DNA of 47,088 nucleotides from positions 1-47,088 of IMG/VR virus record IMGVR_UViG_3300014613_000035. One strand, 5' to 3'. Shown here piece after piece: positions 6,260 to 46,001 of this stretch; within the stretch, counting starts at the first letter, position 1; each line of letters opens with the position of its first letter. The DNA is from a virus (taxonomy: Duplodnaviria; Caudoviricetes). The notes under the pieces were generated by a model. It was not told where the DNA came from. It was given only the letters and a program-made list of their open reading frames with translations, and made no database searches. The translations under genes and the position numbers were made by a program.

Positions 6260-6362
6260 CCCCAAGGAGTGATTTATATTAAATAAAAGATTAATACTCC
6301 TCCTAATTTAACAAACCCACTATTTATCTCGTGTTATAATTCCTTCAAATCAGGAGGATACT

Positions 6363-7123: not shown

Positions 7124-7492
7124 ATGTATAATTGGATAGATGAAAAATGGAGTTGGTATAAATCTCTTCCGTGGTACTGGAAAGTACTAGCTGGAGTACT
7201 AGGGCTCGGGATTATACTTTTGCTAGTGTTATCTCTAATAGGAAGGAAGCCGCAGATAGATTCTTCGGAGTCTGATGAAGCTCACAATGATCTGGTAGAT
7301 CATATGGTGGAGGAGAAGGTTAAAATAGAGGAGGATCTCAAGAAGGAGATAGAAGAATCCAAGGAGAAAATAGCAGAAATTATCAAGAAGGAGCACAAGA
7401 CAGACGAGGAAGCTGCTAAGATTAATGAGAAGATAAACAAAGCTACTTCTGCTGAGGAGGTTAGAGAAATACTGAAAGGACTTAGCAAATGA
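7124..7492 (+). CDS. N-terminal TM plus coiled-coil protein (spanin-like candidate)
   Basis: One TM helix then a charged coiled coil; coupled to the next gene. Confidence 0.5.
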   Translation: MYNWIDEKWSWYKSLPWYWKVLAGVLGLGIILLLVLSLIGRKPQIDSSESDEAHNDLVDHMVEEKVKIEEDLKKEIEESKEKIAEIIKKEHKTDEEAAKINEKINKATSAEEVREILKGLSK

Positions 7493-7947
7493 AACCTTTT
7501 ATATTTATGCTAGCAATCTTCAGCCTGGTCTTTCTATGTCCATTTCAGTCTGTATATGCCGAGGAGAAGATCCCGATGCCAGAAGGCATTGACTACGAAG
7601 TTAATGGCCAGCAGGGTATTTTCTTTACTCTTGAGGAGTATAAACAAATAGCTTTGGTTTATAATGCTTATGTTAATAATCTGGATAAGATTCAGTTTAT
7701 TAACACTAAGTATGAGCTGATGCTGGATATAGAGAAGAACTATGACTTGAGAGTTAAGAACTGCCAGAGCCATATAAGTATTTTAGAATACGATTTGGAT
7801 TTCCAGAAAGCTAGAGTAAAAGAACTTCGGAGTACGATTAAATCTATAAATAGAAATAGCAAGCTGCAGGCAATACTCCACTGGTCGCTCATTGGCATCC
7901 TGGCTGCTGCCGACTTAGTGCTCGTCGTTCACGATTCGACGGACTAG
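7489..7947 (+). CDS. exported/membrane coiled-coil protein (spanin-like candidate)
   Basis: Signal peptide, coiled coil, C-terminal hydrophobic helix. Confidence 0.5.
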   Translation: MKPFIFMLAIFSLVFLCPFQSVYAEEKIPMPEGIDYEVNGQQGIFFTLEEYKQIALVYNAYVNNLDKIQFINTKYELMLDIEKNYDLRVKNCQSHISILEYDLDFQKARVKELRSTIKSINRNSKLQAILHWSLIGILAAADLVLVVHDSTD

Positions 7948-11890: not shown

Positions 11891-12168
11891 TGGATAAGAC
11901 TAAAGCAATGAAGCTTCAAAAGTGGTTTTTCCGATATGGAATAACTAAAGCACAGATAACACTTATGGAGTTTTATAGATTCAGCTCCGATGTGGAGAAA
12001 AGATATGTTTGGCAAATATTCATTGAGTCTATAAATAAAATTTACAAGAAGGGTTACAAGGATGGTTTTGAGAAAGGTAAAGATTTACAATTAAAGAGAT
12101 GTTCTCGTACTCATATACCTAATCCTATTTTGAATTATTTAGAAGAGTTTAATGTCAGACAAGATTAA
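11890..12168 (+). CDS. hypothetical protein
   Basis: TAATG coupling. Confidence 0.55.
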   Translation: MDKTKAMKLQKWFFRYGITKAQITLMEFYRFSSDVEKRYVWQIFIESINKIYKKGYKDGFEKGKDLQLKRCSRTHIPNPILNYLEEFNVRQD

Positions 12169-14595: not shown

Positions 14596-14663
14596 TAGTT
14601 AAAGATTCCTACATTCATGCGTTTAAAATCAATTACTAGTATTAGAGTAGAAGGGATAACTGT

Positions 14664-15968
14664 ATGATAACGCTAACCGATGCCATTGAACGTGCTAAAT
14701 TGTCCGCTGATGAAGGCGGCATTCTAAGTCAGACTTTTTACAATATGCTTATGAATCAAATTGATGAGAAGGATGTGCATCCTTTGACAATGGCTTTGGT
14801 AGAGAATGGAATAATGGTTCGGACGAGTTCTTTAACTAGAGGGGCTATAGCGGCTCGCAGGAGGGCTCTTTACTGGGATGTGGACGAGAATGCTACTCCG
14901 TATGTAGAAGACGAAGCAGCAGTAGCGGAGATGTTCCCTGAAGAGATTCCAGAGGACATGTCCGAAGTTCGAGAAGTACTAGAGAATGCTGGGATAGCTG
15001 TTTCTCCAGATGGTACTGTATCTTTTTATAAGACTAACATTCCAGGGATATACACAGATAAACTTCCACAAGCTTTACCTTTATCGACGGCTATAAGCTT
15101 ATGGGAGCAGAAGTTAGAGATAGCAGATGGTGAGAAGGCCCGAGTAAAGAATATTCAGGATTCTCTTGCTAGACTTAAGGCTCAAGTTGATGAGAGAGTC
15201 AGGACAGGCAAGTCTCCTAAAATTTCAGAGATAGGAGCTTCTCTAACTGAATTGGAGGAGTACGGTTTCGATCCAAGATCTAGATCTGAAATAACCAAAG
15301 GAATTAGTGGTGTTATAGAGAATGTTTTTGAGACAGTTATGGGTAATAACTGGATGGGTGCTGTTACAGCAATCGATGAGGCCCAAGAAGTACTGAATGA
15401 GTATATAAGTGGGCAGGATTCTGATTATAATAATGATTTATATGTTTGGGATGCTTTGGATAAGTTAGTGCAGCTCCAGGAATCTGATCCTGCAGCCTTC
15501 GAGAAATCCGTTGGAGGTTTAGGTGGTTTAGCCGCTAGGTTATATGCAGCATTTATAAAGAATGCTCAAGAAGCTTCTGCAACTTTGTTACTGGATCTCA
15601 ATCTTGGGGAGTTTACCGAATTTGCAAGAGGTCTTGCAGAAGAGTTTAATGTTAATGAATCTCCTGATGAGTTTGTAGATTCGCTTGTTAATAATGAATA
15701 TGAATGGATGGCTGGTGCAATTCCTAATTTGCTGGAGACTGGGTTACTGCCAGGTGTATCCAATATCGAGATAGAGTTTAATGATAGTGATAATTATGGT
15801 GCTTTCGAAGATGAATTAGGAGGATCTATTCCTTCTGGAGATTCTGATGAGCGTGGATCGATACCATTAGAAATGGAACCTGATGAAGTGGGTACGTTAT
15901 TTGATGTTATTAAGGATTATGTAAGAAGTATAGTAGCAGAAGATAAAGAGCGGGGATACCTGGAATAG
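14664..15968 (+). CDS. acidic hypothetical protein (possible internal head protein)
   Basis: 434 aa, D/E-rich blocks separated by short basic linkers. Confidence 0.65.
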   Translation: MITLTDAIERAKLSADEGGILSQTFYNMLMNQIDEKDVHPLTMALVENGIMVRTSSLTRGAIAARRRALYWDVDENATPYVEDEAAVAEMFPEEIPEDMSEVREVLENAGIAVSPDGTVSFYKTNIPGIYTDKLPQALPLSTAISLWEQKLEIADGEKARVKNIQDSLARLKAQVDERVRTGKSPKISEIGASLTELEEYGFDPRSRSEITKGISGVIENVFETVMGNNWMGAVTAIDEAQEVLNEYISGQDSDYNNDLYVWDALDKLVQLQESDPAAFEKSVGGLGGLAARLYAAFIKNAQEASATLLLDLNLGEFTEFARGLAEEFNVNESPDEFVDSLVNNEYEWMAGAIPNLLETGLLPGVSNIEIEFNDSDNYGAFEDELGGSIPSGDSDERGSIPLEMEPDEVGTLFDVIKDYVRSIVAEDKERGYLE

Positions 15969-15970
15969 TT

Positions 15971-16579
15971 ATGCATAATTCTTTTCATAGAGTTGCTGCT
16001 GATATTAATCTTTATGTGTATGTAGGGACTGGTTTTATCCAGGAGGCCATTGTTGATTTGGTTTCTGCGAAAGGCGAAACTTATAATGAGTCATTAGCAG
16101 ATCAGGTTCTAGAAGAAGCCTTGATGTACAGGGACGTTCTAGAAAGCCAGATAGTTCAAGAGGGTTGGGCAGATGCTGCTGCCATTGAATTTACTCAATC
16201 ATATGATATTAGCGGAACAATTGAGTATGAAGGTGAAGATACTCCTCTAGATGGAGGGGAGATAGCTGAGCTTGAGCAGATCGTCGAAGACTGGCTATCT
16301 CCATTTATCGACGAAGCAATTGATGTAGCTGGTGTAGAGGAGTTGATCTGGATTCCTGTAGATAGTAGCAATGTTAAAGCTTTCGCCTACGATCAAGACA
16401 ATCGCTTCTTTTATGTTGAGTTTTTACCTTCTGGAAGAGGTGCATTTTCTGAGGGATCTGTTTATGTATACCACGGTGTAGAACCTGAGGTATATAGTCA
16501 GGCTCTTCAAGCGCCTTCGGCTGGAAAGTTCGTGTGGCAATTCTTGAGAGATCGCTATGATTACGACAGGTTAAGTTAG
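15971..16579 (+). CDS. acidic N-domain plus KTSC domain protein
   Basis: PVDSSNVKAFAYD..YVEF..VYVYHGVEPEVY..APSAGKF..RDRY. Confidence 0.8.
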   Translation: MHNSFHRVAADINLYVYVGTGFIQEAIVDLVSAKGETYNESLADQVLEEALMYRDVLESQIVQEGWADAAAIEFTQSYDISGTIEYEGEDTPLDGGEIAELEQIVEDWLSPFIDEAIDVAGVEELIWIPVDSSNVKAFAYDQDNRFFYVEFLPSGRGAFSEGSVYVYHGVEPEVYSQALQAPSAGKFVWQFLRDRYDYDRLS

Positions 16580-17902
16580 ATGGCAGAGTCTAGTAAAATA
16601 TGTCCTAAATGTAGCAAGGCCAAAAGTCGTGTTGATTTTTCTAAAAATAAGTCTAAGAAAGATGGGTTGAGTGATTGGTGTAAGGTGTGCAGTAGCGAAT
16701 ACTCTGGGGAGTATCGTGATAAAAATAAAGATAGTTTGGCTACTAAAAGTAAAGAGTACCGTGAAAAGAATAAGGAGATTTTAGCTAAAAAAGATAAAGA
16801 GCGCAATAAGAGAGATGCTAAAAAGATAGCAGCTAGAAAAAAGATATATAATGAAAAGAATAGGGAGATAATTGCAGTTAAAAGAAGAGAAGCTTATTTA
16901 AAACGAAAAAGTATGCGTATTAAACGTATGCCAATTCGATTTCCTGGTATTAAATTTTGTACTAACTGTAAAGAAGAAAAGACTCCTGAAGATTTTCATA
17001 ATGATAAAAACACCAAGGATGGTAAGTGCTCTATCTGTGCTGAATGTAATAAAAAGCGTTCAAACGCTTACCATCTTAAAAATCGAGTGATAAGACCTCA
17101 GCCAATAAGATTTGCAGATATTAAATTTTGTCCAAAGTGTAAAGAAGAAAAATCTGAAGGGAAATTTGGAACAACCAAAAAAGGTAAGTTACGTTCTTGG
17201 TGTAATTCTTGTTTAGCGGAAGATGCTCGAATTCGAAGAGCTAATGATATTAGACCTAAAAAAGAATATCTTCCTCGGATGGAAGGCAGTAAAGAATGTT
17301 CTAAGTGTGCTATAAATAAAGAGATTACACTATTTCATGTAAATAAAAGTGCTACAGATGGAAGATGCTCACAATGTATTGAGTGTGTTAAGGAGTATGG
17401 TTCTGAGTATAGTGAGAAAAATAGGGAAAAAATTAGAAGAAGATCTGCAGAATGGTATGAAAATAATTTAGATTATGTTTTAGTTAGACAAAGAGAAAAA
17501 TATCATAATGATCCAGAGTTTAAGCTGAGTATTACTCTGAGACATATTACTTCTAGAGTAGCTAACGGCCAGAAAGCAGGTTCCTTTGTGGAGGATTTAG
17601 GTTGCTCTATTTCAGAATGTAGAATGTATCTAGAATTTCAATTCTACGCCAATTCGGAAACTGGCGAGGAGATGATTTGGGATAATCAAGGTAAAGGTAA
17701 AGGAAGCTGGCAGATCCACCATATTAAACCTTTAGCTTTTTTTGACTTAACAATTAGAGAACAATTCTTAGAGGCAGCTCACTATACGAATTTAAAACCT
17801 TTATGGCATAAAGACCATGTTAAAGAGCATTATAGGTTACGCTCTTTAGCCATAATACGAAAGACAGCATACAACCAAGACCAATCTTATATATTTTACT
17901 AG
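16580..17902 (+). CDS. HNH homing endonuclease with four Zn-finger repeats
   Basis: Repeated KxCxxC..KDG..CxxC; LGCS..WDN.G..WQIHHIKP..FDL..HYTNLKPLW. Confidence 0.8.
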   Translation: MAESSKICPKCSKAKSRVDFSKNKSKKDGLSDWCKVCSSEYSGEYRDKNKDSLATKSKEYREKNKEILAKKDKERNKRDAKKIAARKKIYNEKNREIIAVKRREAYLKRKSMRIKRMPIRFPGIKFCTNCKEEKTPEDFHNDKNTKDGKCSICAECNKKRSNAYHLKNRVIRPQPIRFADIKFCPKCKEEKSEGKFGTTKKGKLRSWCNSCLAEDARIRRANDIRPKKEYLPRMEGSKECSKCAINKEITLFHVNKSATDGRCSQCIECVKEYGSEYSEKNREKIRRRSAEWYENNLDYVLVRQREKYHNDPEFKLSITLRHITSRVANGQKAGSFVEDLGCSISECRMYLEFQFYANSETGEEMIWDNQGKGKGSWQIHHIKPLAFFDLTIREQFLEAAHYTNLKPLWHKDHVKEHYRLRSLAIIRKTAYNQDQSYIFY

Positions 17903-17911
17903 GAGAATTCA

Positions 17912-18160
17912 ATGATTGCTGTAGAAAAATTCATAGCAGTTACTAGTAGTAATATTGATGCAATAGCTTTCGATGAAGAGAATTCTGATTTATATGTTTC
18001 TTTTCTAAATAAGAAAACAGGTTCGAGTACTCTTTATAAATATGCAAATGTAACTCAAGAAGTATTTGAAGAGTTGCGAGATGCTGATTCAAAAGGAAAG
18101 TTTATACATTCCCGAATCAAGGGTAGGTATGAATATAATAGAGTAGAAATAGAAGAATAA
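17912..18160 (+). CDS. KTSC domain protein
   Basis: VTSSNIDAIAFDE..LYVSF..YKYANV..ADSKGKF..IKGRY. Confidence 0.85.
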   Translation: MIAVEKFIAVTSSNIDAIAFDEENSDLYVSFLNKKTGSSTLYKYANVTQEVFEELRDADSKGKFIHSRIKGRYEYNRVEIEE

Positions 18161-20579: not shown

Positions 20580-21560
20580 ATGTTATACTCCATCGTGGAG
20601 ATATGTAATATGTTGAATCTCATAATTGAAGATAATAGGTTGAATGGTGCTGTACGAGGTCTTCCTTTAGTTAAGGAATGTACTAAGTGTGGGGAATGTA
20701 AAGCTATTGATGAATTTTATAAGGCGAAGAATGGGAAGTATGGAAAACTATCTATGTGTAAAGAGTGCTACTCTAAGGATAACAAACGATATATTGCCGA
20801 GAATAATAATCCCAGAAAAACTGAGGGAACTAAAGTTTGTACTAAATGTGGTGGGGAGAAAGATGTAAGTGAGTTTTCTTCTCGTAAGAGAAATAAGGAT
20901 GGTCTTCTCGAAAAATGTAAAGCTTGTTGTGCTGAATATAATAAAGAAAAGAAAGAACGATCTGTTTTAGTTACTGAAGGAATTAAAGCTTGTTCTAGAT
21001 GCGGAAAAGAAAAGTCAGTATTGGAATTTGGAAAATTATCGACAAGTTCTGATGGTTTAAATTATTGGTGTAAAGAATGTGAGAATAAACGAAAGAAAGT
21101 ACAGCGTACTAAACACCGTGTTAAACATTTGAATTATGCTAAGATGCATAGAGCTGAAATATGGGCAAATGAAAACAAAAGAAGGAAAACTGATATTACC
21201 TATAAACTGGCTTGTAGTCTTAGAACAAGGACTAATCTTGCAGTAAAGAAGGGCTGGAAGTCTGGTTCTGCAGTCCGAGATTTAGGATGCTCAATTGAAT
21301 TCTTTAAGGAGTACTTAGAATCTCAATTTACTGAAGGTATGACTTGGGATAATTGGGGTCGGGGTCATGGTTGTTGGAATATAGATCATATAATTCCGTT
21401 AGTTTCTTTTGATTTAACAATAAGAGAACAATTCCTAGAAGCAGCCCATTATACCAATATGCAGCCTTTATGGTTTGAAGATAATATGTCTAAAGGTAGT
21501 AAACTAGATTGGATTAGAAGTACTCAGCATGATGAAGTCCAAGACTATATATTTTATTAA
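20580..21560 (+). CDS. HNH homing endonuclease with three Zn-finger repeats (start may be 20609)
   Basis: KECTKC/KVCTKC/KACSRC; LGCS..GMTWDNWG..WNIDHIIP..HYTNMQPLW..DN..KG. Confidence 0.85.
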   Translation: MLYSIVEICNMLNLIIEDNRLNGAVRGLPLVKECTKCGECKAIDEFYKAKNGKYGKLSMCKECYSKDNKRYIAENNNPRKTEGTKVCTKCGGEKDVSEFSSRKRNKDGLLEKCKACCAEYNKEKKERSVLVTEGIKACSRCGKEKSVLEFGKLSTSSDGLNYWCKECENKRKKVQRTKHRVKHLNYAKMHRAEIWANENKRRKTDITYKLACSLRTRTNLAVKKGWKSGSAVRDLGCSIEFFKEYLESQFTEGMTWDNWGRGHGCWNIDHIIPLVSFDLTIREQFLEAAHYTNMQPLWFEDNMSKGSKLDWIRSTQHDEVQDYIFY

Positions 21561-28709: not shown

Positions 28710-29976
28710 AGTCGGGGGATTCCTAATTCACGGAGAACAGGGAGACAACATCGAAATGCTATCGCTGCTTACATTCTCTCCAAAGGCTGAAACCGCCAGC
28801 CCGGCGGCCAAGACGTTGATCGCCGCATTTCGATCTCTGTCATGTAAAGCGTTACACTTTGGACACGTCCAAGATCGAATATCAAGTGGCAACCCATCGA
28901 CTATGTGTCCACAACTTGAGCAACGTTTACTAGATGGGAAGTATGTGTCTATTCTGACAAATGTTCTTCCCGCCCAGGATGCTTTATACTCCAACTGGCG
29001 AACGAACTCGCCCCAACTGGCATCAGCAATGCACTTGCTCAATTTAGGATTGCGGATCATGTTCTTTACTTTCAGGGATTCAGCGCAAACAACTTGGTTC
29101 TCGTTGATTAGCTTGCGAGACAACTTGTGTAAATTATCCAACCGACAATCGGAGATTTTCGCATGAACACGCGCAACCTTCAGCCTTGCCTTGTCTCGAT
29201 TTCGACTTCCAAGTTTTTTCTTGGCGAGTCGTCTTTGAGCTTTGGCAAGTTTGGCAGCGTATTTCTTAGTATAGCGAGGATTGCCAGTCTTGAAGCCTTT
29301 GTCAGTAACGAACAAATCATGAATGCCCAAGTCAATTCCAACTATGGAATTAACAACGGGCAATGTTTTTGGTTCAAATTCACAAAGACACGAAACGAAA
29401 TACCGTCCCGCTGGATCTTTGGAAATAGTGATCGTGGACGGATGCGAGGGAAGATCGTGACTCCAACGAACGTTCAAAGGAGTCTTGGACTTCGCCATGT
29501 ACAAACGACCGTCAATATATTTGAATCCACTGCGAGTAAACTCAGCAGATTGGTGATCTGTTTTCTTCTTAAAGGTAGGGTATCTTGTACGCCCTTCAAA
29601 GAAGTTTTTAAAAGCTGTTTGTTGGTGACGTATGGATTGTTGCAAGGCAATAGAAGATACGTCATTCAGCCACAAATATTCAGGAAGTTTTTTAATGGCC
29701 GTGAGTTCGGCGCTGGCTTCCACGTACCCGATTTTTTCTTGGGTCTCGTAAAAGGCATCACAGCGCCAACGAAGAATCGAGTTGTATACGAACCGAACAC
29801 AACCGAACGTTTGAGCAAGCAATTGAGTCTGTTCACTCGTTGGGTAGAATCGGTATTTGTATGCTCGCTTATTCATGCCTTACATTATTTCATAGATTTT
29901 GTAAGTTGTCAACAAGAAAGGAGAGCGGCGATTCATTCCCATGGATAAATCCAGGGGTATCCTCGCCTGAAATTCG
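28689..29976 (-). mobile_element. IS200/IS605-family tnpB-only (IS1341-like) element
   Basis: Left-end hairpin cccctggatttatccatggg preceded by GATA; right-end hairpin ending TCAA preceded by GAAT; flanking TTCAT; no tnpA. Confidence 0.9.
28728..29876 (-). CDS. tnpB: RNA-guided nuclease TnpB
   Basis: MNKRAYKYRFYP; RuvC GIDLG / VCAESL / DRDRNAAIN all intact; CSSC..CPKC Zn finger; TTGACA promoter element inside the left end. Confidence 0.95.
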   Translation of the reverse strand: MNKRAYKYRFYPTSEQTQLLAQTFGCVRFVYNSILRWRCDAFYETQEKIGYVEASAELTAIKKLPEYLWLNDVSSIALQQSIRHQQTAFKNFFEGRTRYPTFKKKTDHQSAEFTRSGFKYIDGRLYMAKSKTPLNVRWSHDLPSHPSTITISKDPAGRYFVSCLCEFEPKTLPVVNSIVGIDLGIHDLFVTDKGFKTGNPRYTKKYAAKLAKAQRRLAKKKLGSRNRDKARLKVARVHAKISDCRLDNLHKLSRKLINENQVVCAESLKVKNMIRNPKLSKCIADASWGEFVRQLEYKASWAGRTFVRIDTYFPSSKRCSSCGHIVDGLPLDIRSWTCPKCNALHDRDRNAAINVLAAGLAVSAFGENVSSDSISMLSPCSP

Positions 29977-34598: not shown

Positions 34599-35528
34599 AT
34601 GTATAATATGTCATTTAGAAAAATTGCAAATTCAGAAATTCTCGGGGTCTCATACAAAGGGAACTGGAGAAAATCTGCTAGTAAAAAGTTTGCTTCTTTT
34701 TATATGGATGATGATGGGTTGGCAATAAACATAGAAGCAGCTCTAGATACTGTAGCTGATGTATATGCCATATCCAGAGATCCTAGTGATTATCTTTTAA
34801 TACCCACGAGAGCTAATTCAGCTAATAGACCTAATGATAATTTAGATGGGTGGACTTCCGAGGAGCTTCTGGAATTCGATCCACATATTGGCCGCAGGCG
34901 ATATTCTACTTATAACTTGAAACCGCATTATGTTAATCATCAAGCAGAGAATCCTAAGTTATCGAGAGGTGTTATTCTCGATTCTCACTACAACAACTTA
35001 AATGATGCCAGTGATGAGCTTCAGGAAACTTTTTTTAATGTAACAGGTAGAGAAATAGCTAAAGATGAATTTGTAGAGACTTTAATTGGTGTTGATACCA
35101 CCAAGGACCCAATTCTTGCTGAAGCTTATAGAAATGGGTCTACCAGATTATTCAGTATGGGTTGTGACGTAGAAGCTACCATGTGTAGTATTCCTGAGTG
35201 TGGAAAAGTGGCTACTACTGTATGGCAATTCTGCGATCATATAAAAAATAAACATGCTAGACGTCCAGTGGACTGCGAAGACGGTAATACAAGGGTTGCT
35301 CATGAGTGGTGTTTAGGCACTATTTTTGCTGAGGAATCTGTTGTTGATGTACCTGCAGACAAGGACGCTAGTATACAAGAGAACATTCTGAGTGTTTCTG
35401 AGATGGTGAATGGGCCGAATAGGCTCACAGCCAATCAGATCGAGGAGATAGTATCATTTGTAGCTAAGTATCCGAAGCAAATACCAGATTCTTTAGCTGC
35501 TGTTATAAATGAAGCTATTTCCCGTTAG
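34599..35528 (+). CDS. putative prohead maturation protease
   Basis: NDNLDGW, YVNH..SRGVILDS, FSMGC..CSI..CG; lies between portal and scaffold/capsid. Confidence 0.7.
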   Translation: MYNMSFRKIANSEILGVSYKGNWRKSASKKFASFYMDDDGLAINIEAALDTVADVYAISRDPSDYLLIPTRANSANRPNDNLDGWTSEELLEFDPHIGRRRYSTYNLKPHYVNHQAENPKLSRGVILDSHYNNLNDASDELQETFFNVTGREIAKDEFVETLIGVDTTKDPILAEAYRNGSTRLFSMGCDVEATMCSIPECGKVATTVWQFCDHIKNKHARRPVDCEDGNTRVAHEWCLGTIFAEESVVDVPADKDASIQENILSVSEMVNGPNRLTANQIEEIVSFVAKYPKQIPDSLAAVINEAISR

Positions 35529-35538
35529 GAGAAAACAA

Positions 35539-37542
35539 ATGGGTATGGATAACAAAATCAAGCTGTTTCAAACTGCAAAGAAAATCTGTGAGCGAGGTGA
35601 CATAAGTCTTAGTGCTGCCGATCAAAGGCGCATTGAGAATGAAACCAAAGAATTGCTTAGGAAGTCCATGTCCTATCGAGCGGCATCGGGTACTTCTAAG
35701 GGATTCAAGAGAGTTCTTTTCAGGTTAGGAAAAGCCAAGAATGCGGCAGAAGCTTTTAAAGTTGTTGCCCGTTATCTTGCGGCTGAAGAGATGTTGAATG
35801 TAGATATTTCAGACATCTTGGAAGAAGTTGAAGAAGCCGTTGAAGATATTGGAGAATCCTTGGAGCAGGCTGAAGAGGTACTCGGCGGTGGAGATAAAGG
35901 TAAAGAAAAAGACGAAGACAAAGGTAAAGGTAAAGGTAAAGATAAACCCAAACCAGAGAAGGAAGATGATGACGAGGATGAAGATGATGATGAGCTTGAT
36001 TTTGAGGATGGTCCACCTAAGAAGAATTCACCCCAAGAAGAGAGTGGAGATGTTCCTCCTCAATTCCAGATTGATAAAGCCAAAGAAGCTGTTGTGCGTT
36101 TAGCTCAAGAGTTCGATAAGAGCATGGATATGACCACGGATAAAGGTCCAGGCATGGGTAAAGGTCCAGGTAAAGGTCCAGGAATGGGTAAGGGTCCCGG
36201 CAAAGATAAAGAAAAGGGTCCAGGCATGGGTCAAGGTCCCGATAAAGAAAAAGGCTTCCCTGGTAAGAAACCTACGAAGCTAAAAGATATTAATGATAAG
36301 GACAAGGGAGAAGAGAAAATAACTGAAGACGAGATGGGGATTGAAAAAGGTCCTTCTACTGGAGGTGTTCTAGCCAGAGTAAAGGTTAGTATAACTCCAG
36401 ACAAGAACATTGTTGCTAGTTATGCTAATCAACCTTTGTTCTTGGCAATTCCCAATGCTGCAGTTAAGAAGAATCCCGAGAAGCTCCGAAGAGCGGCTAA
36501 TAAGGTTCTTGGTTTAGTTATTTACGACGGTCCCAAAGTTGCGGCTGCAAAATGCGGCGTGAAGCTCATGGCTGGAGTAGATGAAGATATACTCTTAGAT
36601 TCTCAGGCAGAAGTACCTGCTAATAAAGAAAATGTTACTGATAATGCTGAGACTGTCACCAGAGAAGAACAACCTGGAGATCCCAATACAGCTTTGGAAG
36701 AGAACGATACTGATAATGCTGACAAACCTGATAAGGTTACAGCGATCAGGAAGCGCCTAGAGCGGAAGAGAAGGGCTCAGCGTCGAAGGAGATCTGGAGA
36801 CACCATTCTCGATGATAACGAGGATCTTTCTGTAGCTACACCTGCTGCGAATCCAAATTCCTTGGATGTCACAGACGGTAGCGACACGGATACGGATACA
36901 AATTATTCTAAACCTTCAGATATGCTAGATGGTGGTGAAACTGACATTAAGAGTGTTGAAGCTAACTACAAAAAGCTTTATGCCAACAGAGCCAAGAAGG
37001 AAGCAGCCGAGAAAACTAAAAAGTTTGTAAATAGGTTTGCTCGTTGTATGAAGATTGCTGCCAAGAGAATGGCACTCAATCACGATGACAATCCCATGAA
37101 GGCTGCTGCGTTGGATATTCTAACTGCTGATAATGTTCGTTTTTCGGACGGTGAGCGTTTTGCTCCAATGGATTCCGTAACGGCCAAGGAAATAGTAGAG
37201 CTGATTGCTGCCGAGAGTCATGATAATTTCATTAGCCATTTGATGGAGAGAACTTCCAAATTGATGAACAAGAGTGAAGCATATCTGGAAGATGTAGAAG
37301 CCGATATGGAAACTCAAGTTCCCCGAGATGTAGAAGTCGAAGGTGAGTGTGGTGCTCCTCCTAAGAAAAGTAGGAAATCGGCCAAGCTTCGGGCAGCGGC
37401 TAGTGAAGGAAACTTTAACTTCAATCCCAATTTTGTAGGATCTGTGAAACCCAAAGAGCCGGTTAATCTTATCAGGGATGCCATGGGTAGTACCAAGATA
37501 GGTCAGAGGACTGCTAGGTTAAAAGCTGCAGCAGGAAGGTAA
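35539..37542 (+). CDS. putative scaffold / prohead core protein
   Basis: aggag RBS before ATG 35539; alternating acidic and basic low-complexity blocks, GPGMGK repeats. Confidence 0.6.
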   Translation: MGMDNKIKLFQTAKKICERGDISLSAADQRRIENETKELLRKSMSYRAASGTSKGFKRVLFRLGKAKNAAEAFKVVARYLAAEEMLNVDISDILEEVEEAVEDIGESLEQAEEVLGGGDKGKEKDEDKGKGKGKDKPKPEKEDDDEDEDDDELDFEDGPPKKNSPQEESGDVPPQFQIDKAKEAVVRLAQEFDKSMDMTTDKGPGMGKGPGKGPGMGKGPGKDKEKGPGMGQGPDKEKGFPGKKPTKLKDINDKDKGEEKITEDEMGIEKGPSTGGVLARVKVSITPDKNIVASYANQPLFLAIPNAAVKKNPEKLRRAANKVLGLVIYDGPKVAAAKCGVKLMAGVDEDILLDSQAEVPANKENVTDNAETVTREEQPGDPNTALEENDTDNADKPDKVTAIRKRLERKRRAQRRRRSGDTILDDNEDLSVATPAANPNSLDVTDGSDTDTDTNYSKPSDMLDGGETDIKSVEANYKKLYANRAKKEAAEKTKKFVNRFARCMKIAAKRMALNHDDNPMKAAALDILTADNVRFSDGERFAPMDSVTAKEIVELIAAESHDNFISHLMERTSKLMNKSEAYLEDVEADMETQVPRDVEVEGECGAPPKKSRKSAKLRAAASEGNFNFNPNFVGSVKPKEPVNLIRDAMGSTKIGQRTARLKAAAGR

Positions 37543-37547
37543 TTGAA

Positions 37548-38312
37548 TTGACCGATGTTCGCTTAGAATCGTTCCAATCTAGTGTTTATCACCATGGGAT
37601 AGATCTAACTAGATCCCAGATAAAGAATGCTCTTGGAATGTATGTAGCGGATGTTACTGCAATTTTTAGATCTGGAATGTTAGTACAACTCAATAATGAG
37701 CAGAAAATCATTATTTGTGATGGTACTGTTCCATTTGGGTTCTCGAAGTATAATAAGACGAATATTACATACGCTGCTGTAACAGATGAATACCTTCAAT
37801 TAAATGGGGTTATTTCTACTAATCTACTGCATCCTAGTTTGTTGAATCCTTCTTTCGGAGCAGGTGTAAGGGTAGGGCTTGCTCCAACAGGTATTGCATA
37901 TACTGAGGGATCTGATTATACCGTTAATTATAATAACGGACAGATAACCAGGACACCGACCAGCATCATTCCCGATGGTGGTCGTGTTTATGTTAATTAT
38001 CAATACCAGATGACAAATCTTGAGCTTGAACAAGAAGGGCTCAATTATTGGAATCAGGTAAATGATGTAAGTGTCAGAAATAATAGAGTGTCAGTTGTAA
38101 ATGACTGGTCTCTCATATTCACTACTGCGTATGATCCATCTCAAACCTACCAAGTTAATGATATTCTGGTAGCTGGTAATGTTGCAGATGGTTTAAGTGG
38201 TTTGGTAACAAAAGGTGCCAAGGGTACCGCATTCATAGGGAGGGTTTTTCAACCTCCCACATCCTCGGACCCATATCTTGGGGTTCGTTATGTAGGAGGC
38301 ATGATCAATTGA
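37548..38312 (+). CDS. capsid decoration-like protein, paralog 1
   Basis: TTG start; colinear with 38418..39191 (GIDLTRSQIK, DWSLIFTTAYD, DPYLGV). Confidence 0.65.
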   Translation: MTDVRLESFQSSVYHHGIDLTRSQIKNALGMYVADVTAIFRSGMLVQLNNEQKIIICDGTVPFGFSKYNKTNITYAAVTDEYLQLNGVISTNLLHPSLLNPSFGAGVRVGLAPTGIAYTEGSDYTVNYNNGQITRTPTSIIPDGGRVYVNYQYQMTNLELEQEGLNYWNQVNDVSVRNNRVSVVNDWSLIFTTAYDPSQTYQVNDILVAGNVADGLSGLVTKGAKGTAFIGRVFQPPTSSDPYLGVRYVGGMIN

Positions 38313-38417: not shown

Positions 38418-39191
38418 ATGGCAATTCAAAACATGGAAGCCTTCAGAGTAAGTCCTTACGCAACCGGACTCGATCTGAATCGCTCCCAAATCAAGGTGGC
38501 GCTTGGCAACTACATAGTTGACGAGACAACCCCCACAACGATTTATGCTGGTATGATTGTCCAACAGAATGTTGGCAACCAGCTAATCGAAGTTTGTACT
38601 GGTGCAATACCTTTTGGTTTTGCTAAGTACAATCGCGCTACTGCAGTAAGAGGTGTAGTGGTAGGTGAGTATGTACGAGTGTACACTGGTGTTGCTGCTC
38701 AGTTGAGTCATACCAATATCTGGGCACCTAATGCCAATGATGGTGTAAGGGTAGCGGCAGCACTCACAGGTGCAGCATATACGTTGACCACAGATTATAC
38801 TATTCAATCTGCTGCTGGTACAATTACTAATGCTGGTGTTGGTATTGCAGACGGTGCATATGTTTATGTTAATTATACATATACACTAAGTACTGCTGAA
38901 CTTGCTCTGCATGGTAGTAATTTCTGGAACTCTCAGGATGATGCACAGTATCAAGCTGGCCGATTCACTGTTGTTACAGATTGGGCAACTCTTTTCACTA
39001 CAGCTTACGATACAGCCGGTACCTATACTGTAGGTATGCAACTTTATGCTGGTCGTACAGCAAAAAACAAGTCTGGTTATGTATGTGCTGACAACACGGA
39101 GGGCCTTGCATATCTCGGTCGTTGTTTCCAAATTCCAACTGCAAACGATCCTTACCTCGGCGTGAAATTCGTCGGTGGTATGGTAGCATAA
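38418..39191 (+). CDS. capsid decoration-like protein, paralog 2
   Basis: Strong RBS aggagg; immediately upstream of the major capsid gene. Confidence 0.7.
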   Translation: MAIQNMEAFRVSPYATGLDLNRSQIKVALGNYIVDETTPTTIYAGMIVQQNVGNQLIEVCTGAIPFGFAKYNRATAVRGVVVGEYVRVYTGVAAQLSHTNIWAPNANDGVRVAAALTGAAYTLTTDYTIQSAAGTITNAGVGIADGAYVYVNYTYTLSTAELALHGSNFWNSQDDAQYQAGRFTVVTDWATLFTTAYDTAGTYTVGMQLYAGRTAKNKSGYVCADNTEGLAYLGRCFQIPTANDPYLGVKFVGGMVA

Positions 39192-39202
39192 GGAGGATGA
39201 CG

Positions 39203-40477
39203 ATGAAAACTAGAAATCCTTATAGAAGACTGTCTGAGAATCGTCGTCCTGTTTCCGGTAAATCCGCGAAACGAGGATCGGCTACGAGAACAGCTCGGAA
39301 GCAAGATGTTCGAGCTAAAATTGCACAAAAACGTCGAATGGCAGCTAGATCTCCAAGTAGGTTTACTGATAGGAGAGATGAGCGTCTATTCGAGGGCAAC
39401 GGGAACTTCAATCCTCAAAGGTATTCCCATCCTGGAAGGGATGAAATCAGGAATGCCACTAAGACCAGTCGTAGAATGTTCGACAAAACTGGTCAGATCA
39501 ATGCCCAAGACAACAAAGATGCGCTGACTCAGATTAGTCATCTGCTCAATCAAGTGACTAAGAAGAATGCTGACAAGCTTTCTTTCCATAATGTTGATGA
39601 TGGGTCCGATAAGATCAACAAAGAAGCTCGCAGAGACATTCTCGCTGCAGCTCTAACAGATCCCAGTGGTGCTGGCTGGCACATGGTTGGACAAGAGCTT
39701 GCTCTTCCAATCAAGGCTATCCTGGACTATGAAGGATTCGCAAGGAAGTTCTACAGAGTGCGTCAGCTAGGCCAAGCCGAGCTTTTCCGTATTCCTGTAG
39801 ACATCCGTTCGGTTGCTTATGTAATCGGTCAAGATGGTCAGACTCCAGAAGCTAGGATCAAATCAAAGTGGATCACTCCTACTGAGTTCAAAGTCGCTAG
39901 TTTCCCCACTGTTGATATTCATGACATCTATCTGTTGAACTTTGATGTTCTCGATAGAGCCCAAGACACTGCTCGCCAAGAAATCGAATTGCAAGAAGAT
40001 AAAGCGGGTATTGCTGCTCTCGATGCTGCTTCTACTGCTATCAATACTGCGACTACGTTCGCCAGTCTCGGCATCGGCGCATTCGAGGATGTACGTTATC
40101 AGGTAGAGCGCCACCGTTTGATGGTGGAGAACTTCCTGATCAATCGTGCTGAGTTGTCTGACATCGTGAAGACCATGAGTACTGCTGTTGATCCCGTAAC
40201 CGAGCGCGAATTGATTCTCGCGGGTTATATCGGAACCATTTTGAATTCCCAAATTCTGACCGCCGCTGGAACCGGCGTCGAAGAGGTCATTCCAGCTGGA
40301 ACATTCTACGCTGTAACTGGCGCAGATTACCTAGGAGAGATGGGGATTCGTATGGATCTTCAGAGCGAGCCGTACAATCGTTATGCAATGGGAGAAACCG
40401 TAAAAGGTTGGGCGTTTGTGGAAATAATTGGATTTGGTTTGGTAAACGCCCGTTCCTGCTCTAAAGGTTCGAAGTAA
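39203..40477 (+). CDS. major capsid protein with Arg-rich N-terminal propeptide
   Basis: aggagg RBS; PIKAILDYEGFARK, FDVLDRAQDTARQEIELQED, typical of HK97-fold capsids of large phages; synteny. Confidence 0.85.
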   Translation: MKTRNPYRRLSENRRPVSGKSAKRGSATRTARKQDVRAKIAQKRRMAARSPSRFTDRRDERLFEGNGNFNPQRYSHPGRDEIRNATKTSRRMFDKTGQINAQDNKDALTQISHLLNQVTKKNADKLSFHNVDDGSDKINKEARRDILAAALTDPSGAGWHMVGQELALPIKAILDYEGFARKFYRVRQLGQAELFRIPVDIRSVAYVIGQDGQTPEARIKSKWITPTEFKVASFPTVDIHDIYLLNFDVLDRAQDTARQEIELQEDKAGIAALDAASTAINTATTFASLGIGAFEDVRYQVERHRLMVENFLINRAELSDIVKTMSTAVDPVTERELILAGYIGTILNSQILTAAGTGVEEVIPAGTFYAVTGADYLGEMGIRMDLQSEPYNRYAMGETVKGWAFVEIIGFGLVNARSCSKGSK

Positions 40478-42153: not shown

Positions 42154-43038
42154 ATGAAGGATGTGGACACACTTCCAGAAAGGATTGCAGTTTTGAATAA
42201 AGATAATAAATTCATTTCGTACACACATCCTGCCCGTATACGTAAAATGTTGAAAAAAAAGAGAGCAGAAGTGTTCTCAACAGACCCGTTTACAGTAAAA
42301 CTAGTAGACGGAGGAGGAGACAAGGTTATGAAACCTATGATCACGAATTTCACTAAGTATTTTAGTGGAGAAGAGAGGGACGTTTATGTCCAAAACCTTT
42401 CTAACAATCAGGTATCGATTCAATTTGAAGTGGGTCCTGGCAGATATGAGTCTGTTTTGGTGCCGAAGACCAGAAGGCCGCTCAATTTGACCCAGCATAT
42501 TCCTTTCGAGGCTATCAAGAGGAGTACTGATATTAGGAAGCTTGTTAACAGGAGACCTCCTGCATTGCAATTGATGACTGAGGCCGAATATACCAAATTT
42601 TATGAGGATTTGGCTACGGCTATGAAAACCAGTGTAGAGGAGGAGATTACAAAATCCTTGGAGCTTCAGGCACAATTGATGGATCGGCGGATTCCTGTAG
42701 CTAAGACTGAGGCAGAGAAGCCTAAGACTATCGACCAGATCGAGCAAGAGAGATCGGAAAATCCCGAGGAAGCTGCTGAAGCTCAACCACTTCCTCAAGT
42801 AGTTGGTTTATGTGCCCGAGTAGGGGTGGATATATCTCCAAGTGATAAGCTCAAAGCTGGCGAAATGATGGCTGAATTAGAGGGTATGGAAGGTGAGTTG
42901 AGATCTACTGATTATGAGTATTTAACTTCCATGGGTCACTATAGGGTTATTAAAAAGTGGGCTTCTGCGCGAATGGTTGGTGAAGCTTCTTCAGAAGAAG
43001 AGGGTGAAGAGGGTGAAGGTGAGACTATAGAAGAATAA
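42154..43038 (+). CDS. phage protein with N-terminal RRXRR/PLMP-like segment; possible internal start at 42328
   Basis: VLNKDNKFISYTHPARIRKMLKKKRAEVFSTDPFTVKL; internal ggaggagg before MKPMITNF. Confidence 0.65.
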   Translation: MKDVDTLPERIAVLNKDNKFISYTHPARIRKMLKKKRAEVFSTDPFTVKLVDGGGDKVMKPMITNFTKYFSGEERDVYVQNLSNNQVSIQFEVGPGRYESVLVPKTRRPLNLTQHIPFEAIKRSTDIRKLVNRRPPALQLMTEAEYTKFYEDLATAMKTSVEEEITKSLELQAQLMDRRIPVAKTEAEKPKTIDQIEQERSENPEEAAEAQPLPQVVGLCARVGVDISPSDKLKAGEMMAELEGMEGELRSTDYEYLTSMGHYRVIKKWASARMVGEASSEEEGEEGEGETIEE

Positions 43039-43157
43039 ACTATAACTCAAATCGTCTTTTAATCTTTTAAAGTTATCTTTCTTTTACGTTCCCTAACTGT
43101 ATTATTGTTATACTCAACTTTGTAGAATTGTATTTTCTATTAGGAAAGGTATGAAAT

Positions 43158-43622
43158 ATGGGACAACCTAGAATAACTGAAAGAATAGTAACTTTAACGG
43201 CTGCTGGTGGTGCAGCACCTGCTTTAAGATGCTGGGATGCTTCTGTTGGTGAACCAATAAAAAATTTAGCTGTAACCATTTCTAGTAGAGGTGAAACTTG
43301 GGCTGCAGGTAATCTTACTTGGCAAATTTTTTATGGAGGTTACTGGTTAGTGGGTGAACCTTTTGTTATAGGTTCTACTCATGCGGGTGGAGTAAGCCAA
43401 GGTACTGCGGCTATTGCTGGTGGTGCTATTGTTCAGGAAGAAATATACACTGATGCTGGTCCTTTTTTACCTAATAGGATTATTCAACATCCGAGTGGAG
43501 ATGGAGCACTTGCTAGAGGAATGAATGGAGTTCCTATTGTATGTTTATTAACTAATGCTAAGGCAGTTGCATTAACAGTTTATATAACTTTTCAATCTGA
43601 GACAGTTGCTGACTTTAGATAG
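43158..43622 (+). CDS. putative structural protein
   Basis: G/A/T-rich beta-type composition, late-gene context. Confidence 0.5.
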   Translation: MGQPRITERIVTLTAAGGAAPALRCWDASVGEPIKNLAVTISSRGETWAAGNLTWQIFYGGYWLVGEPFVIGSTHAGGVSQGTAAIAGGAIVQEEIYTDAGPFLPNRIIQHPSGDGALARGMNGVPIVCLLTNAKAVALTVYITFQSETVADFR

Positions 43623-43654
43623 TAATTTATAAACCAGGAGTAGAGGTAAATAAA

Positions 43655-43972
43655 ATGAAACTAGGCATCTCAGACAAAGGTTTTAGAAGAATATCTCAAG
43701 AGATGGCAGATGGTACTTCAGGTGAAAGAGAATTACTTAATAGTGCTGTGGAATCACTTAAACAAGAAGATATTCTAGTAACTATGAGTGAAGTAGAATA
43801 TCTTATAGATATGCTTAATAACACTCCCAGTGGTGAGAGGGCGGTTAGTATGTTTTTACGAACTGATTCTGAGTGGCGTTTAAACGCAGATGAGGTTACG
43901 AAAGTTTTAGATATATTAAGTCCTGCTGCACATGAAATGTTAGATTACGATTTTGCAAGAAGTCAGGAGTGA
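43655..43972 (+). CDS. acidic protein with shared N-terminal leader
   Basis: MKLGISDKGFRRISQ. Confidence 0.7.
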   Translation: MKLGISDKGFRRISQEMADGTSGERELLNSAVESLKQEDILVTMSEVEYLIDMLNNTPSGERAVSMFLRTDSEWRLNADEVTKVLDILSPAAHEMLDYDFARSQE

Positions 43973-43975
43973 GTT

Positions 43976-44296
43976 ATGGGAAGCATTTTTGAAGCAATAA
44001 TAACACCAGGCATGGCAGGATTAGCTGCTGCTGCAATAGCGATTATGTTCTTTATAGGGAAGATTCCTTATAAGGGTGGTAAAGTTAATGGGACAAAGCT
44101 CTGGAAAAATTGGGGTGAATTCCTCCTGGTGGCTTTGTGTATTGGCGGAGCATTTACTCCTGGTGTATCGGACATACCTGTATCTAAGTTCGGGGCGATC
44201 ATAATTTTTGGTATGATTTCTGCTCTTGTGGCTCATCTTGGCAGAAAAATTCTGAAGCCTATAATTTTGGCTAAACTCGAAGGAAAGGAAGAATAA
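43976..44296 (+). CDS. three-TM membrane protein (holin-like)
   Basis: Three hydrophobic helices, charged C-terminus, 106 aa. Confidence 0.5.
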   Translation: MGSIFEAIITPGMAGLAAAAIAIMFFIGKIPYKGGKVNGTKLWKNWGEFLLVALCIGGAFTPGVSDIPVSKFGAIIIFGMISALVAHLGRKILKPIILAKLEGKEE

Positions 44297-44297
44297 A

Positions 44298-44951
44298 ATG
44301 AAATTCAAAGGCATATCAGATCAAGGTTTTAGTAGATTGGCTAAGGTTATTAAAGGTCAAGGTATGGGTGAATATGATGAAATAGGAGATCTACAAAGGG
44401 GTATTTCTCAAGTAGGGTTATATTATGACTTTGCGGATGATTCTGCAGCTACAAATATTCTAGCTGATCATTTTGCCGATCCTGAGAATTGGGTTATTAT
44501 GGAAGGTGGCGGTAAATGGGGTGAATCTCTCATGGATAAGATTAATATGGAGGCCATTAGGGGTACAATGACACCTTATGAGAGTAAATCTCTGCCAAAT
44601 GGCGATATTGCTTATAAGGCATCTGATGGTAATGGTGAATTAAATGCAGCAGGAGTTCAACTTCAAGATATAGTTGCTGCTCTTGCCGATTATCCTCTTC
44701 TTGATGATGAAGCATACTCAAATGCTCAGATGGATCAAGCTTTAGATAGTATTGAGTCAAATGGTTGGGGTCTAGTAGATGAGGCTAAAGCTCCTGAGAA
44801 TTGGCCCAATGAGGTGTGGACTTGGTTATGGGAAAATAATCAGATGGCTTTAGAGGGCAATAATCAAGGTGAAATTGATGTTGAGGAGAAAGATATCAAA
44901 GAAGCTCTTCAAGAGCTTGGATGGCTAATGGCCGAGGAAGAGGAGTACTAA
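44298..44951 (+). CDS. acidic protein with shared N-terminal leader
   Basis: MKFKGISDQGFSRLAK; ALADYPLLDDEAYS. Confidence 0.7.
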   Translation: MKFKGISDQGFSRLAKVIKGQGMGEYDEIGDLQRGISQVGLYYDFADDSAATNILADHFADPENWVIMEGGGKWGESLMDKINMEAIRGTMTPYESKSLPNGDIAYKASDGNGELNAAGVQLQDIVAALADYPLLDDEAYSNAQMDQALDSIESNGWGLVDEAKAPENWPNEVWTWLWENNQMALEGNNQGEIDVEEKDIKEALQELGWLMAEEEEY

Positions 44952-44952
44952 G

Positions 44953-45720
44953 ATGAGAGTCTCAGGAATTTCCAATAAGGGTTTTAGTAGGATTGCTCAA
45001 AGGGTAAGCAAGACTGCTGGTACAGAACCTCGTGTGTATGTGGGAACTTACGGAAAATATAACTCTGGAAGTATTGATGGAGCTTGGCTAGATTTGAGTG
45101 ATTATTCAAGTTTAGAAGAGTTCTACGAGGCTGCTAGAGAGCTTCATAAGGATGAAGAAGATCCTGAGTTTATGTTCCAGGATCACGAAGGTATTCCTGA
45201 AGGTATGATTAGTGAATCTCATATAGATCCTGCATTCTTTGATTTCTTGGCGCAGACTTCTGATTGGGATGATGAGCAAAGAGAAGCCTTCGATATTTTC
45301 ATGGAGTATATGTGGTCTGGAAGTGGTGAGCCTGATGATGTTACCAATGCTCTTACTGCGTTTGAAGATTCCTATCGAGGAGTCTATAATAGTATGGAAG
45401 ATTATGCTCTTGAGTTTGTAGAGGATATGGGAGGTCCTGAGAATATAAGTAATCCTGAATTTTATTTTGATTATGAGCAATTCGGAAGAGATTTGGGCTT
45501 TGATGGTTATTACGAGGAAGAGGGTAGTGTTTATGATCAAGATGGAGAAGAAACTGGGTATAGTACTATAGAAGAGATGATCGATAGCTGGATGGATGAT
45601 GGTGTAATTGCTGGTGAAACTATGTCTCGTTATTTTGATTATGAGAAATTTGGGAGAGATCTCGAATTAGGTGGCGATATGTATTTTAGAAATGGCCATG
45701 TTTTCGATAATAATTATTAG
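44953..45720 (+). CDS. ardA: ArdA-family anti-restriction protein with shared N-terminal leader
   Basis: VYVGTYGKYNSGSIDGAWLDL..DEEDPEFMFQDHEGIP; FEDSYRGVY; YFDYExFGRDL twice. Confidence 0.9.
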   Translation: MRVSGISNKGFSRIAQRVSKTAGTEPRVYVGTYGKYNSGSIDGAWLDLSDYSSLEEFYEAARELHKDEEDPEFMFQDHEGIPEGMISESHIDPAFFDFLAQTSDWDDEQREAFDIFMEYMWSGSGEPDDVTNALTAFEDSYRGVYNSMEDYALEFVEDMGGPENISNPEFYFDYEQFGRDLGFDGYYEEEGSVYDQDGEETGYSTIEEMIDSWMDDGVIAGETMSRYFDYEKFGRDLELGGDMYFRNGHVFDNNY

Positions 45721-45749
45721 AACTCTAATCCTTTAAGGAGGAAATAAAT

Positions 45750-46001
45750 ATGAGACTCAAAGGAATTTCAAAACAAGCTTTAGGCAGGATTGCTAGATCC
45801 GTTAAGGGTCAAGAAGAGGACAAAGTTTTTGAGCCCGCAGGTCATCCTTGGGATATGGCTGATAAACTTAGAGAAGTTCTAGGTGATGAGCAGTTTATTA
45901 ATGAGCTTCTAAAGGCTATGAGCCACGAGGAGGCTGTAGAGAATCTTCAGTTTATAGCACAAAACTGGGATATTTCGTTAAGCGATAGAGAAGAGTACTA
46001 G
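45750..46001 (+). CDS. acidic protein with shared N-terminal leader
   Basis: MRLKGISKQALGRIAR. Confidence 0.7.
   Translation: MRLKGISKQALGRIARSVKGQEEDKVFEPAGHPWDMADKLREVLGDEQFINELLKAMSHEEAVENLQFIAQNWDISLSDREEY

Follow-up and report, generated by a model that had tools for sequence, protein, structure and literature searches.

The 47,088-nt stretch of viral DNA analysed here (hereafter, the window) is one whole contig, positions 1-47,088 of IMG/VR record IMGVR_UViG_3300014613_000035, and represents part of the genome of a large tailed phage. Behind its head genes lie four genes, all on the plus strand and with ATG starts, whose otherwise unrelated products open with the same short, basic leader, which we refer to as the tag. 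The first encodes an acidic protein of 105 amino acids (aa) with no family match (43655..43972), in which the tag comprises residues 1-14 (43655-43696) and ends in R-I-S. In the other three it comprises residues 1-15, ending in R-L-A in a mostly helical, acidic protein of 217 aa (44298..44951) and in R-I-A both in a long-form relative of the anti-restriction protein ArdA (255 aa, 44953..45720) and in an acidic protein of 83 aa (45750..46001). The array is interrupted by a single untagged gene (43976..44296, plus strand), which codes for a hydrophobic protein of 106 aa with no Pfam match; relatives have a gene of similar size at this position. The predicted transcript to which the array belongs begins with a conserved gene of 154 aa (43158..43622, plus strand). 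A preliminary description of this locus had singled out the four common leaders, the unrelated and strongly acidic bodies behind them, the position of the genes in the virion module and the placement of the ArdA domain right after its leader, and all of these observations are borne out here. When a matrix built on three of the leaders is used to score the fourth, the latter obtains 18.5-30.5, as against 3.4-6.7 for the best other start among the 933 start-anchored open reading frames (ORFs) of the window. The four bodies form separate BLASTP families, with isoelectric points (pI) of <=4.05-4.37 versus 10-12 for the tags; the genes map downstream of the major capsid gene, at a distance of 3-5.5 kb, and the ArdA domain starts at residue 28, five residues past a second K-T-A at residues 20-22.

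The tag is a clade-wide, portable element borne by unrelated, acidic and soluble bodies. Using a matrix derived exclusively from the four window leaders, 38 of 14,137 starts score >=15 in 33 loci containing a capsid gene, against a single start out of 34,680 in 78 control loci fetched through ArdA, these being start-level counts on partly redundant loci whose redundancy was kept. Among the numerous uncultured relatives of the phage, with capsid identities of 60-78%, four are complete (G001-G004, 170-192 kb); scored with a 36-row alignment at a threshold of >=12, they yield 10 tagged ORFs in 1334, 11 in 1396, 10 in 614 and 7 in 639, and none when their N-termini are shuffled. G003 contributed no training row, and its 10 tagged ORFs are thus fully held out. 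The scan of related genomes for further cargo that the preliminary description had called for returned 93 matches in all, which reduce to 69 non-redundant tagged proteins of 67-451 aa once near-duplicates are removed, and these distribute among 57 body families. The tag is patchily distributed: a tagged gene is present in 14 of the 18 capsid loci with >=63% identity and >=5 kb of downstream sequence, and in 0 of 6 at <=61%. The tag is conserved in all three close homologs of the 217-aa protein, and the small body of the 83-aa protein is common to tagged proteins of relatives. By contrast, the tag was not found in the cultured phages JA11, HyRo, RHph_I42 and Voja-6, Virus Rctr197k shows only one weak, non-terminal match, and whole-genome rescans of JA11, HyRo and Rctr197k revealed no convincing tagged gene. 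A profile search of 1.84 billion proteins produced 10 matches, six of them true N-terminal tags and four of them false positives in leucine-rich repeats, so the motif must be anchored at a protein terminus. The literature searched, mainly open-access text without supplements, contains no description of the tag that we could find, although supplements of jumbo-phage surveys could mention one.

The tag spans 14-22 residues and can be summarised as M-x(1-6)-G-I-S-D-x-G-hydrophobic-[KR]-R-I-A. Over the 69 non-redundant proteins, its consensus reads G (54), I (54), S/T/P, D (41), x, G (46), hydrophobic, K/R (41), R (65, with K in the remaining 4), I/L/V (68) and A (58). It takes the form of an amphipathic helix, with a hydrophobic moment of 0.63 as compared to 0.35 for shuffled sequences, and none of the 69 proteins displays a signal- or membrane-like hydrophobic stretch (a 9-residue hydropathy window >=2.0 within the first 35 residues). 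The bodies behind it have a median length of 122 aa and carry a mean charge of -0.145 per residue (n=69); in a second gene set, body charge is <=-0.10 in 27 of 29 tagged genes versus 78 of 966 others. As the preliminary description had also proposed, the tag is conserved at the protein level: across the 69 tags all six Arg, four Gly, three Ile and four Ala codons and both Ser codon blocks are in use, and the G+C content at third codon positions (GC3) of the tag tracks that of the body (rho 0.78). Two database proteins (P0121 and P0122) contain a second, internal copy of the tag, as if two tagged genes had fused.

The core of the tag recurs at the N-termini of head proteins. The head maturation protease gene (34599..35528, plus strand; phrog_18299, E 2.3e-28) encodes a protein with the N-terminus F-R-K-I-A, in which H114 and S186 are invariant. 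A Foldseek search with its predicted model returned chains of T4 gp21 (5JBL) in the top three rows (E 0.034, probability 0.92), a single weak result on which the protease looks gp21-like. In 11 of 13 proteases a K-[TIV]-[AS] motif occurs within the first 14 residues, just before the first strand in the model. The major capsid protein (39197..40477, plus strand) matches phrog_2522 from residue ~94 and is preceded by a basic N-terminal extension, N-P-Y-R-R-L-S, with capsid proteins of the clade mostly starting N-P-Y-[KR]-[RK]-[IL]-[AS]. When 1039 untagged genes are ranked with a five-column matrix derived from the tags only, five proteases rank 3, 7, 22, 45 and 360 and three capsid proteins 21, 29 and 124 (two further capsid genes were dropped by the overlap filter), as opposed to 145-938 for terminases. 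The test of this head link rests on these ranks, since a regular expression written after viewing the head proteins was set aside. Between the protease and capsid genes lies a probable scaffold gene (35509..37542, plus strand), assigned from this position and from its long acidic tracts, the product of which has conserved [KR]-x-[AS] sites: scaffold alignments contain four columns at which a [KR]x[AS] finishes in 13-14 of the 14 rows. The C-terminus of the scaffold also features a conserved basic segment of the type G-x-T-x-L-G-R-R-L-G-R-L, a candidate capsid-binding element.

These head proteins provide a rationale for locating the putative cleavage site of the tag. Relative to shuffled sequences, the motif [KR][ILVTMF]A is enriched 10.7x at tag junctions, 5.9x in capsid N-termini (n=22), 2.9x in proteases (n=13) and 2.7x in scaffolds (n=17), while the ratios for capsid cores, tag bodies and all genes are 0.7x, 1.5x (18 vs 12) and 1.1x; the sets are made up of related sequences and their counts are not independent, a first point that detracts from our interpretation. 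A [KR]-x-A is found at the core in 64 of the 69 tags, and a second one within 14 residues in 19 of them. The core is common to the tag and to protease and capsid N-termini, and [KR]-x-A is enriched in scaffold, capsid extension and protease. Because scaffold, capsid N-terminus and protease have this motif in common, the cut likely falls after R-I-A/S or K-T-A, at a [KR]-x-A site, and not at KGQ. The preliminary description had placed cleavage near KGQ, KTAG or ISQ; the last two are near the right places, and KGQ is the less likely site. [AGS]Q is in fact present at 51 of 69 tag junctions, versus 20.8 in shuffled sequences and 9.6 in bodies, yet a cut after [AGS]Q as the main site was discarded, given that neither scaffolds nor capsid N-termini nor proteases show an excess of this dipeptide. 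Gln may instead be a preferred residue after the cut. T4 gp21 cuts after Glu. Cleavage after this residue, as in SPN3US, was likewise rejected for lack of enrichment of Glu-ending motifs in scaffolds: [ILV]xE stands at 1.0x both in scaffolds and at tag junctions, and [AGS]xE at 1.1x and 1.5x, respectively.

A promoter-like element common to head genes precedes the window array. This predicted bipartite late promoter (43083..43114, plus strand; score 16.7) consists of TTTA-nn-T-CC-nAC and TG-n-TATA, separated by a spacer of 6-8 nt, and lies upstream of the conserved gene at 43158 by 75 nt and of the first tagged gene by 572 nt. The element was derived from 130-base upstream regions of the protease gene and of the homolog of the 43158 gene in other phages, retaining 18 of 21 head-gene sites after two off-register sites and one duplicate had been dropped. 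In the window, only three sites score >=16 (14599, 20558 and 43083). Among held-out genomes, the protease genes of three of the four relatives reach this score and the fourth obtains 13.7, with the protease gene of the window below 12. The matrix also matches ahead of a large conserved gene in all four relatives, which is probably the tail sheath gene, judging from its size, its position and a motif of this family. In addition, the element appears 37-61 nt before several outlying tagged genes; for those of G001 and G002 that are remote from the head module, the distance is 37-50 nt. Its presence throughout the clade suggests a phage-encoded sigma factor or activator. The preliminary description had set the tagged genes behind another motif, AGTAATTTATA, and there is indeed an exact copy at 43621..43631 (plus strand). 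Its role as the promoter of the module did not hold up. Five exact copies occur on the plus strand of the window (2255, 8124, 30529, 32751 and 43621), together with one bearing a single mismatch at 6268; allowing up to one mismatch on both strands, there are 7 matches against 2.1 expected. Four of the exact copies are followed by a start codon at a distance of 11-23 nt, but two of them precede genes outside the virion module (2277 and 8149), and the core of the motif, GTAATTTATA, is absent from G001-G003, with 4 copies in G004. AGTAATTTATA was consequently rejected as a late promoter; it is probably separate from the bipartite element and its role is perhaps translational.

A possible fifth member of the system in the window is an acidic KTSC-domain protein (15971..16579, plus strand), which retains only the short core S-F-H-R-V-A. 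This core ranks second among the 1039 genes scored with the tag-only matrix, the G004 homolog has a fuller tag, and the predicted late promoter at 14599 precedes the operon of the gene. Its upstream neighbour (14664-15968), also acidic, lies behind the same predicted promoter, and a second small KTSC-like gene is found at 17912.

Among the bodies, ArdA is the only cargo with a clear anti-defence assignment. The 255-aa protein matches PF07275 from residue 28 with E 5.8e-34 and 118.4 bits, well above the curated cut-off of 27, and is further recognised by the PHROG anti-restriction family (E 8.9e-41) and by PDB 2W82 (E 1.8e-4). Its family membership leads us to predict that this ArdA relative blocks type I restriction, ArdA being named as an inhibitor of type I restriction-modification in PMC12373910. 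The association with the tag is particular to its long form: a tag score >=8 is obtained by 7 of 18 long-form ArdA homologs versus 0 of 101 short forms. ArdA is known mainly from conjugative elements, and our literature search found no paper describing a virion-packaged ArdA. Five long-form homologs (P0004, P0006, P0007, P0010 and P0011) begin with a modified form of the leader, M-G-L-x-x-x-x-I-K-[KR]-[IL]-A, which in four of them is followed by another [KR]-x-[AS] ahead of the domain, and probably represent a sister lineage. The cargo of relatives includes two GNAT acetyltransferases, HAD_SAK_1, ParB-like domains, DUF5661, DUF5662, DUF7249, phrog_871 and phrog_1915, as well as a weak match in one relative to a McrBC-inhibitor family (E 2.7e-4). 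In the case of ArdA, DUF7249, DUF5662, GNAT, HAD_SAK_1, phrog_871 and phrog_1915, the domain starts right after the tag. An ADP-ribosyltransferase identity, initially read by eye from motifs in some of the relatives' cargo, was rejected upon finding a single sub-threshold Pfam match (E 0.023). For the three other tagged proteins of the window, which the preliminary description had presented as inhibitors, no family, fold or Atlas match lends substance to that claim: Pfam, PHROG and PADLOC gave nothing convincing and the Atlas no usable match. The predicted model of the 217-aa protein (predicted local distance difference test score 78) has no clear known fold, its best Z being 5.3 among 48,161 chains, and its one match is to an uncharacterised phage protein (E 9e-4).

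Taken together, these observations lead us to favour the view that the tag is a head-targeting propeptide, analogous to the T4 capsid-targeting sequence and endowed with its own sequence and cleavage site. We consider this the likely explanation. The modular capsid-targeting tag put forward by the preliminary description is supported indirectly, by the 57 body families, the core at protease and capsid N-termini, the head-gene promoter and the weak match to gp21. As we envisage it, the tagged proteins would be made late, and the basic helix of the tag would dock on the prohead core, for which the acidic scaffold is a candidate partner, drawing its bearers into the assembling head. The head protease would then cut the tag at the predicted Arg/Lys-x-Ala site during maturation, and the trimmed acidic bodies would be retained in the head and ejected with the DNA into the host, inasmuch as acidic proteins would not be expected to cling to packaged DNA. 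Once injected, the ArdA relative would block type I restriction. That most of the cargo consists of injected anti-defence proteins is a more tentative proposition, which we hold as a serious possibility and somewhat short of probable. In its broadest form, the proposal is that of an open cargo bay common to a whole clade of uncultured phages of 160-190 kb. A portable basic helix, usable at either protein end, would load at least a dozen fast-changing acidic effectors per genome for co-injection, ArdA, acetyltransferases, phosphatase-like and unknown domains among them, and would be cut by a T4-like protease specific for Arg/Lys-x-Ala; this composite picture, too, we put forward tentatively, as one that may or may not hold in full.

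Several other explanations of the tag can be entertained. It might be an intracellular docking or masking helix, directed at a membrane, at a host or phage machine or at its own acidic body, on proteins that are never packaged. The amphipathic and basic nature of the tag would suit such a role, as would the large arrays that lie outside the head module without a late promoter, the fact that ArdA-type proteins usually act early and the possible occurrence of the tag at a C-terminus. A docking helix of this sort does not, however, account for a core that recurs at the N-termini of protease and capsid, and not in terminase or neck proteins, nor for tagged genes residing within the head module in 14 of 18 close relatives or for the head-gene promoter immediately ahead of several outlying ones, and we deem it unlikely. 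Packaging might also serve a humbler end, with the tag bringing into the prohead an expendable, acidic filler of the core, either degraded or left behind in the manner of T4 gp67 and gp68, instead of injected effectors. PMC9958956 presents gp67 and gp68 as degraded core proteins, and many tagged bodies are indeed short, very acidic and devoid of family matches. The predicted cut motif, nonetheless, is barely enriched in the bodies (1.5x), which therefore do not seem built for digestion; intact ArdA, GNAT, HAD and DUF domains figure among them, and a turnover that spans 57 families is more in line with an arms race than with a filler. We regard this second alternative as improbable.

Further removed from the evidence are two readings in which the head plays no part. 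The common start could be a DNA or RNA cassette, either a recombination handle or a translation-initiation element, with the peptide being incidental. Some neighbouring genes do bear identical tags, as three in G002, suggesting recent copying. Nevertheless, the use of all synonymous codons, the agreement of tag and body GC3 and the retention of both the amphipathic period and the invariant basic residue make a nucleic acid function very improbable. Similarly, a signal for secretion out of the host (Sec, Tat or similar) would explain an N-terminal, basic segment with an occasional RR and a small residue at its end, but the hydrophobic core that such a signal requires is missing from all 69 proteins, and this last reading is hardly credible.

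A number of observations weigh against a head-targeting propeptide or against the details of its processing. The structural match of the protease to gp21 lies above E 0.001, and the protease has no Pfam or PDB sequence match to any protease. Conserved [KR]xA sites in helical scaffold domains could be structural, and a simple [KR]xA site leaves unexplained the abundance of AQ at tag junctions (43 vs 3.7 expected). In G001, the distant homolog of the 217-aa protein (L116:5100-5822) has no N-terminal tag and displays instead a tag-like C-terminus, which scores 13.1 versus 8.5 for the next-best C-terminus; a cut after R-I-A would there leave most of the tag attached. A tagged gene is missing from four of the 18 close capsid loci, and at most one weak case occurs in genome G005, so the system is dispensable or has diverged. 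Transcriptional evidence is likewise uneven. At a null fraction <=0.10, the promoter is associated with only 8 of 17 tag clusters, four of them by way of the head-module promoter; of the 12 outlying clusters, 4 have it. No promoter is found within 1.5 kb of the largest two of these arrays (8 genes in G002 and 6 in G003), whose neighbours are mostly unannotated, apparently non-structural genes. A direct-upstream promoter test was non-significant at thresholds of 12-16 (p 0.18-0.49), although crude gene calls in high-GC genomes weaken this test. Lastly, most tagged bodies have neither a family match nor a known function.

Elsewhere in the window, PHROG matches identify a terminase gene at 12152 and a portal gene at 30933, the latter encoding 604 aa. 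The portals of G001, G002 and G003 are 1048-1623 aa long and match in split pieces, which is consistent with inteins or other insertions. An IS605-family TnpB (Cas12f1-like) gene is inserted amid virion genes on the minus strand (28728-29876), and two endonuclease VII/HNH-like genes with repeated zinc-finger stretches (16580-17902 and 20580-21560) are probably homing endonucleases. Two paralogous genes of ~255 aa lie between scaffold and capsid gene (37548-38312 and 38418-39191), each of G001-G004 having one match, and they are possibly duplicated decoration proteins. Directly after the capsid gene there is a conserved gene with an N-terminal RRXRR domain (42154-43038; PF14239), present in all four complete relatives. 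The untagged product of 43976-44296 appears holin-like from its position and hydrophobicity, and a pair at 7124-7947, spanin-like in its hydrophobic N-terminus and size, is encoded far from it; in relatives, unlike in the window, the spanin-like genes come after the holin-like gene in the head module. Among the matches listed (40 of 323), the capsid protein of the window shares 58.6% identity with that of Virus Rctr197k and <=28% with those of cultured Erwinia, Dickeya, Rhizobium, Pseudomonas and Mycobacterium cluster C phages, and a quick capsid tree was used for orientation only.

The lack of a common sequence makes anti-defence genes hard to find, and the tag could serve as a barcode for them. 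If it marks head-loaded cargo, it would deliver 57 unrelated families to test against restriction, bacteriophage exclusion (BREX), the antiphage signalling system based on cyclic oligonucleotides (CBASS) and clustered regularly interspaced short palindromic repeats (CRISPR), with ArdA as a positive control. Should the proposal hold in its broadest form, the tag by itself would identify dozens of new anti-defence families together with a new packaging signal. Head-loaded cargo would also bring co-injection of proteins in the style of T4 into a distant phage lineage, place ArdA inside the virion and predict a gp21-like protease with non-Glu specificity, which is testable with two recombinant proteins. 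The principle is nonetheless already known from T4 and P1, and the phages involved are uncultured, which limits both the surprise and how easily the proposal could be tested in full.

The closest parallel is the capsid-targeting sequence of T4. PMC7411985 and PMC12373910 describe it on the internal proteins Ip1-3, a precedent for tagged head cargo, and together with PMC9958956 they portray a short N-terminal propeptide of ~10-20 aa on unrelated proteins (IPI-III and Alt) that is removed by gp21. According to PMC9958956, gp21 activates itself by cutting off nine N-terminal residues, digests the scaffold and trims the internal proteins. A gp21-like protease, here a weak model match, and anti-restriction cargo complete the resemblance. 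The tag differs from its T4 counterpart in its sequence, in combining a basic tag with acidic cargo and in its scale: each genome has several arrays that together comprise 7-11 or more tagged genes, and the bodies fall into 57 families. The capsid lineage is distant from that of T4, and the system is known here from sequence alone. The predicted [KR]-x-A site also departs from the cut after Glu made by gp21, and, because Glu-ending motifs are not enriched in scaffolds or tag junctions, the tag would be an analogue of the T4 sequence and not that sequence itself. Phage P1 likewise packages anti-type-I restriction proteins, the Dar proteins, in its head, and the first 30 residues of DarB are enough for a reporter to be packaged, whereas no common N-terminal consensus is reported for the Dar proteins (PMC9024508). 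Packaging is a prediction in the present case, and the cargo is small and includes ArdA in place of DarA or DarB. In SPN3US and phiKZ-like phages, ejection proteins with an AXE motif belong to the many head proteins processed by a T4-like prohead protease, and PMC7411985 proposes their propeptides as targeting signals; these are 111-130 aa long and end in Glu, as opposed to the single conserved helix of 14-22 residues seen here. Within the ArdA family (PF07275; ORF18, PDB 2W82), the 255-aa protein conforms in its sequence match and strong acidity, and departs from most members in its length (255 aa vs about 175), a second Pfam-matching stretch, the tag and its location in a virion operon. Finally, head delivery of conflict domains, GNAT and ArdA among them, has been predicted for MuF-fused and polyvalent proteins (Iyer et al. 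2017; PMC5512222, PMC7824862). Delivery in those systems would proceed through fusion to MuF or portal domains or through a large polyprotein, while in the clade described here it would be accomplished by a short tag on separate small proteins.

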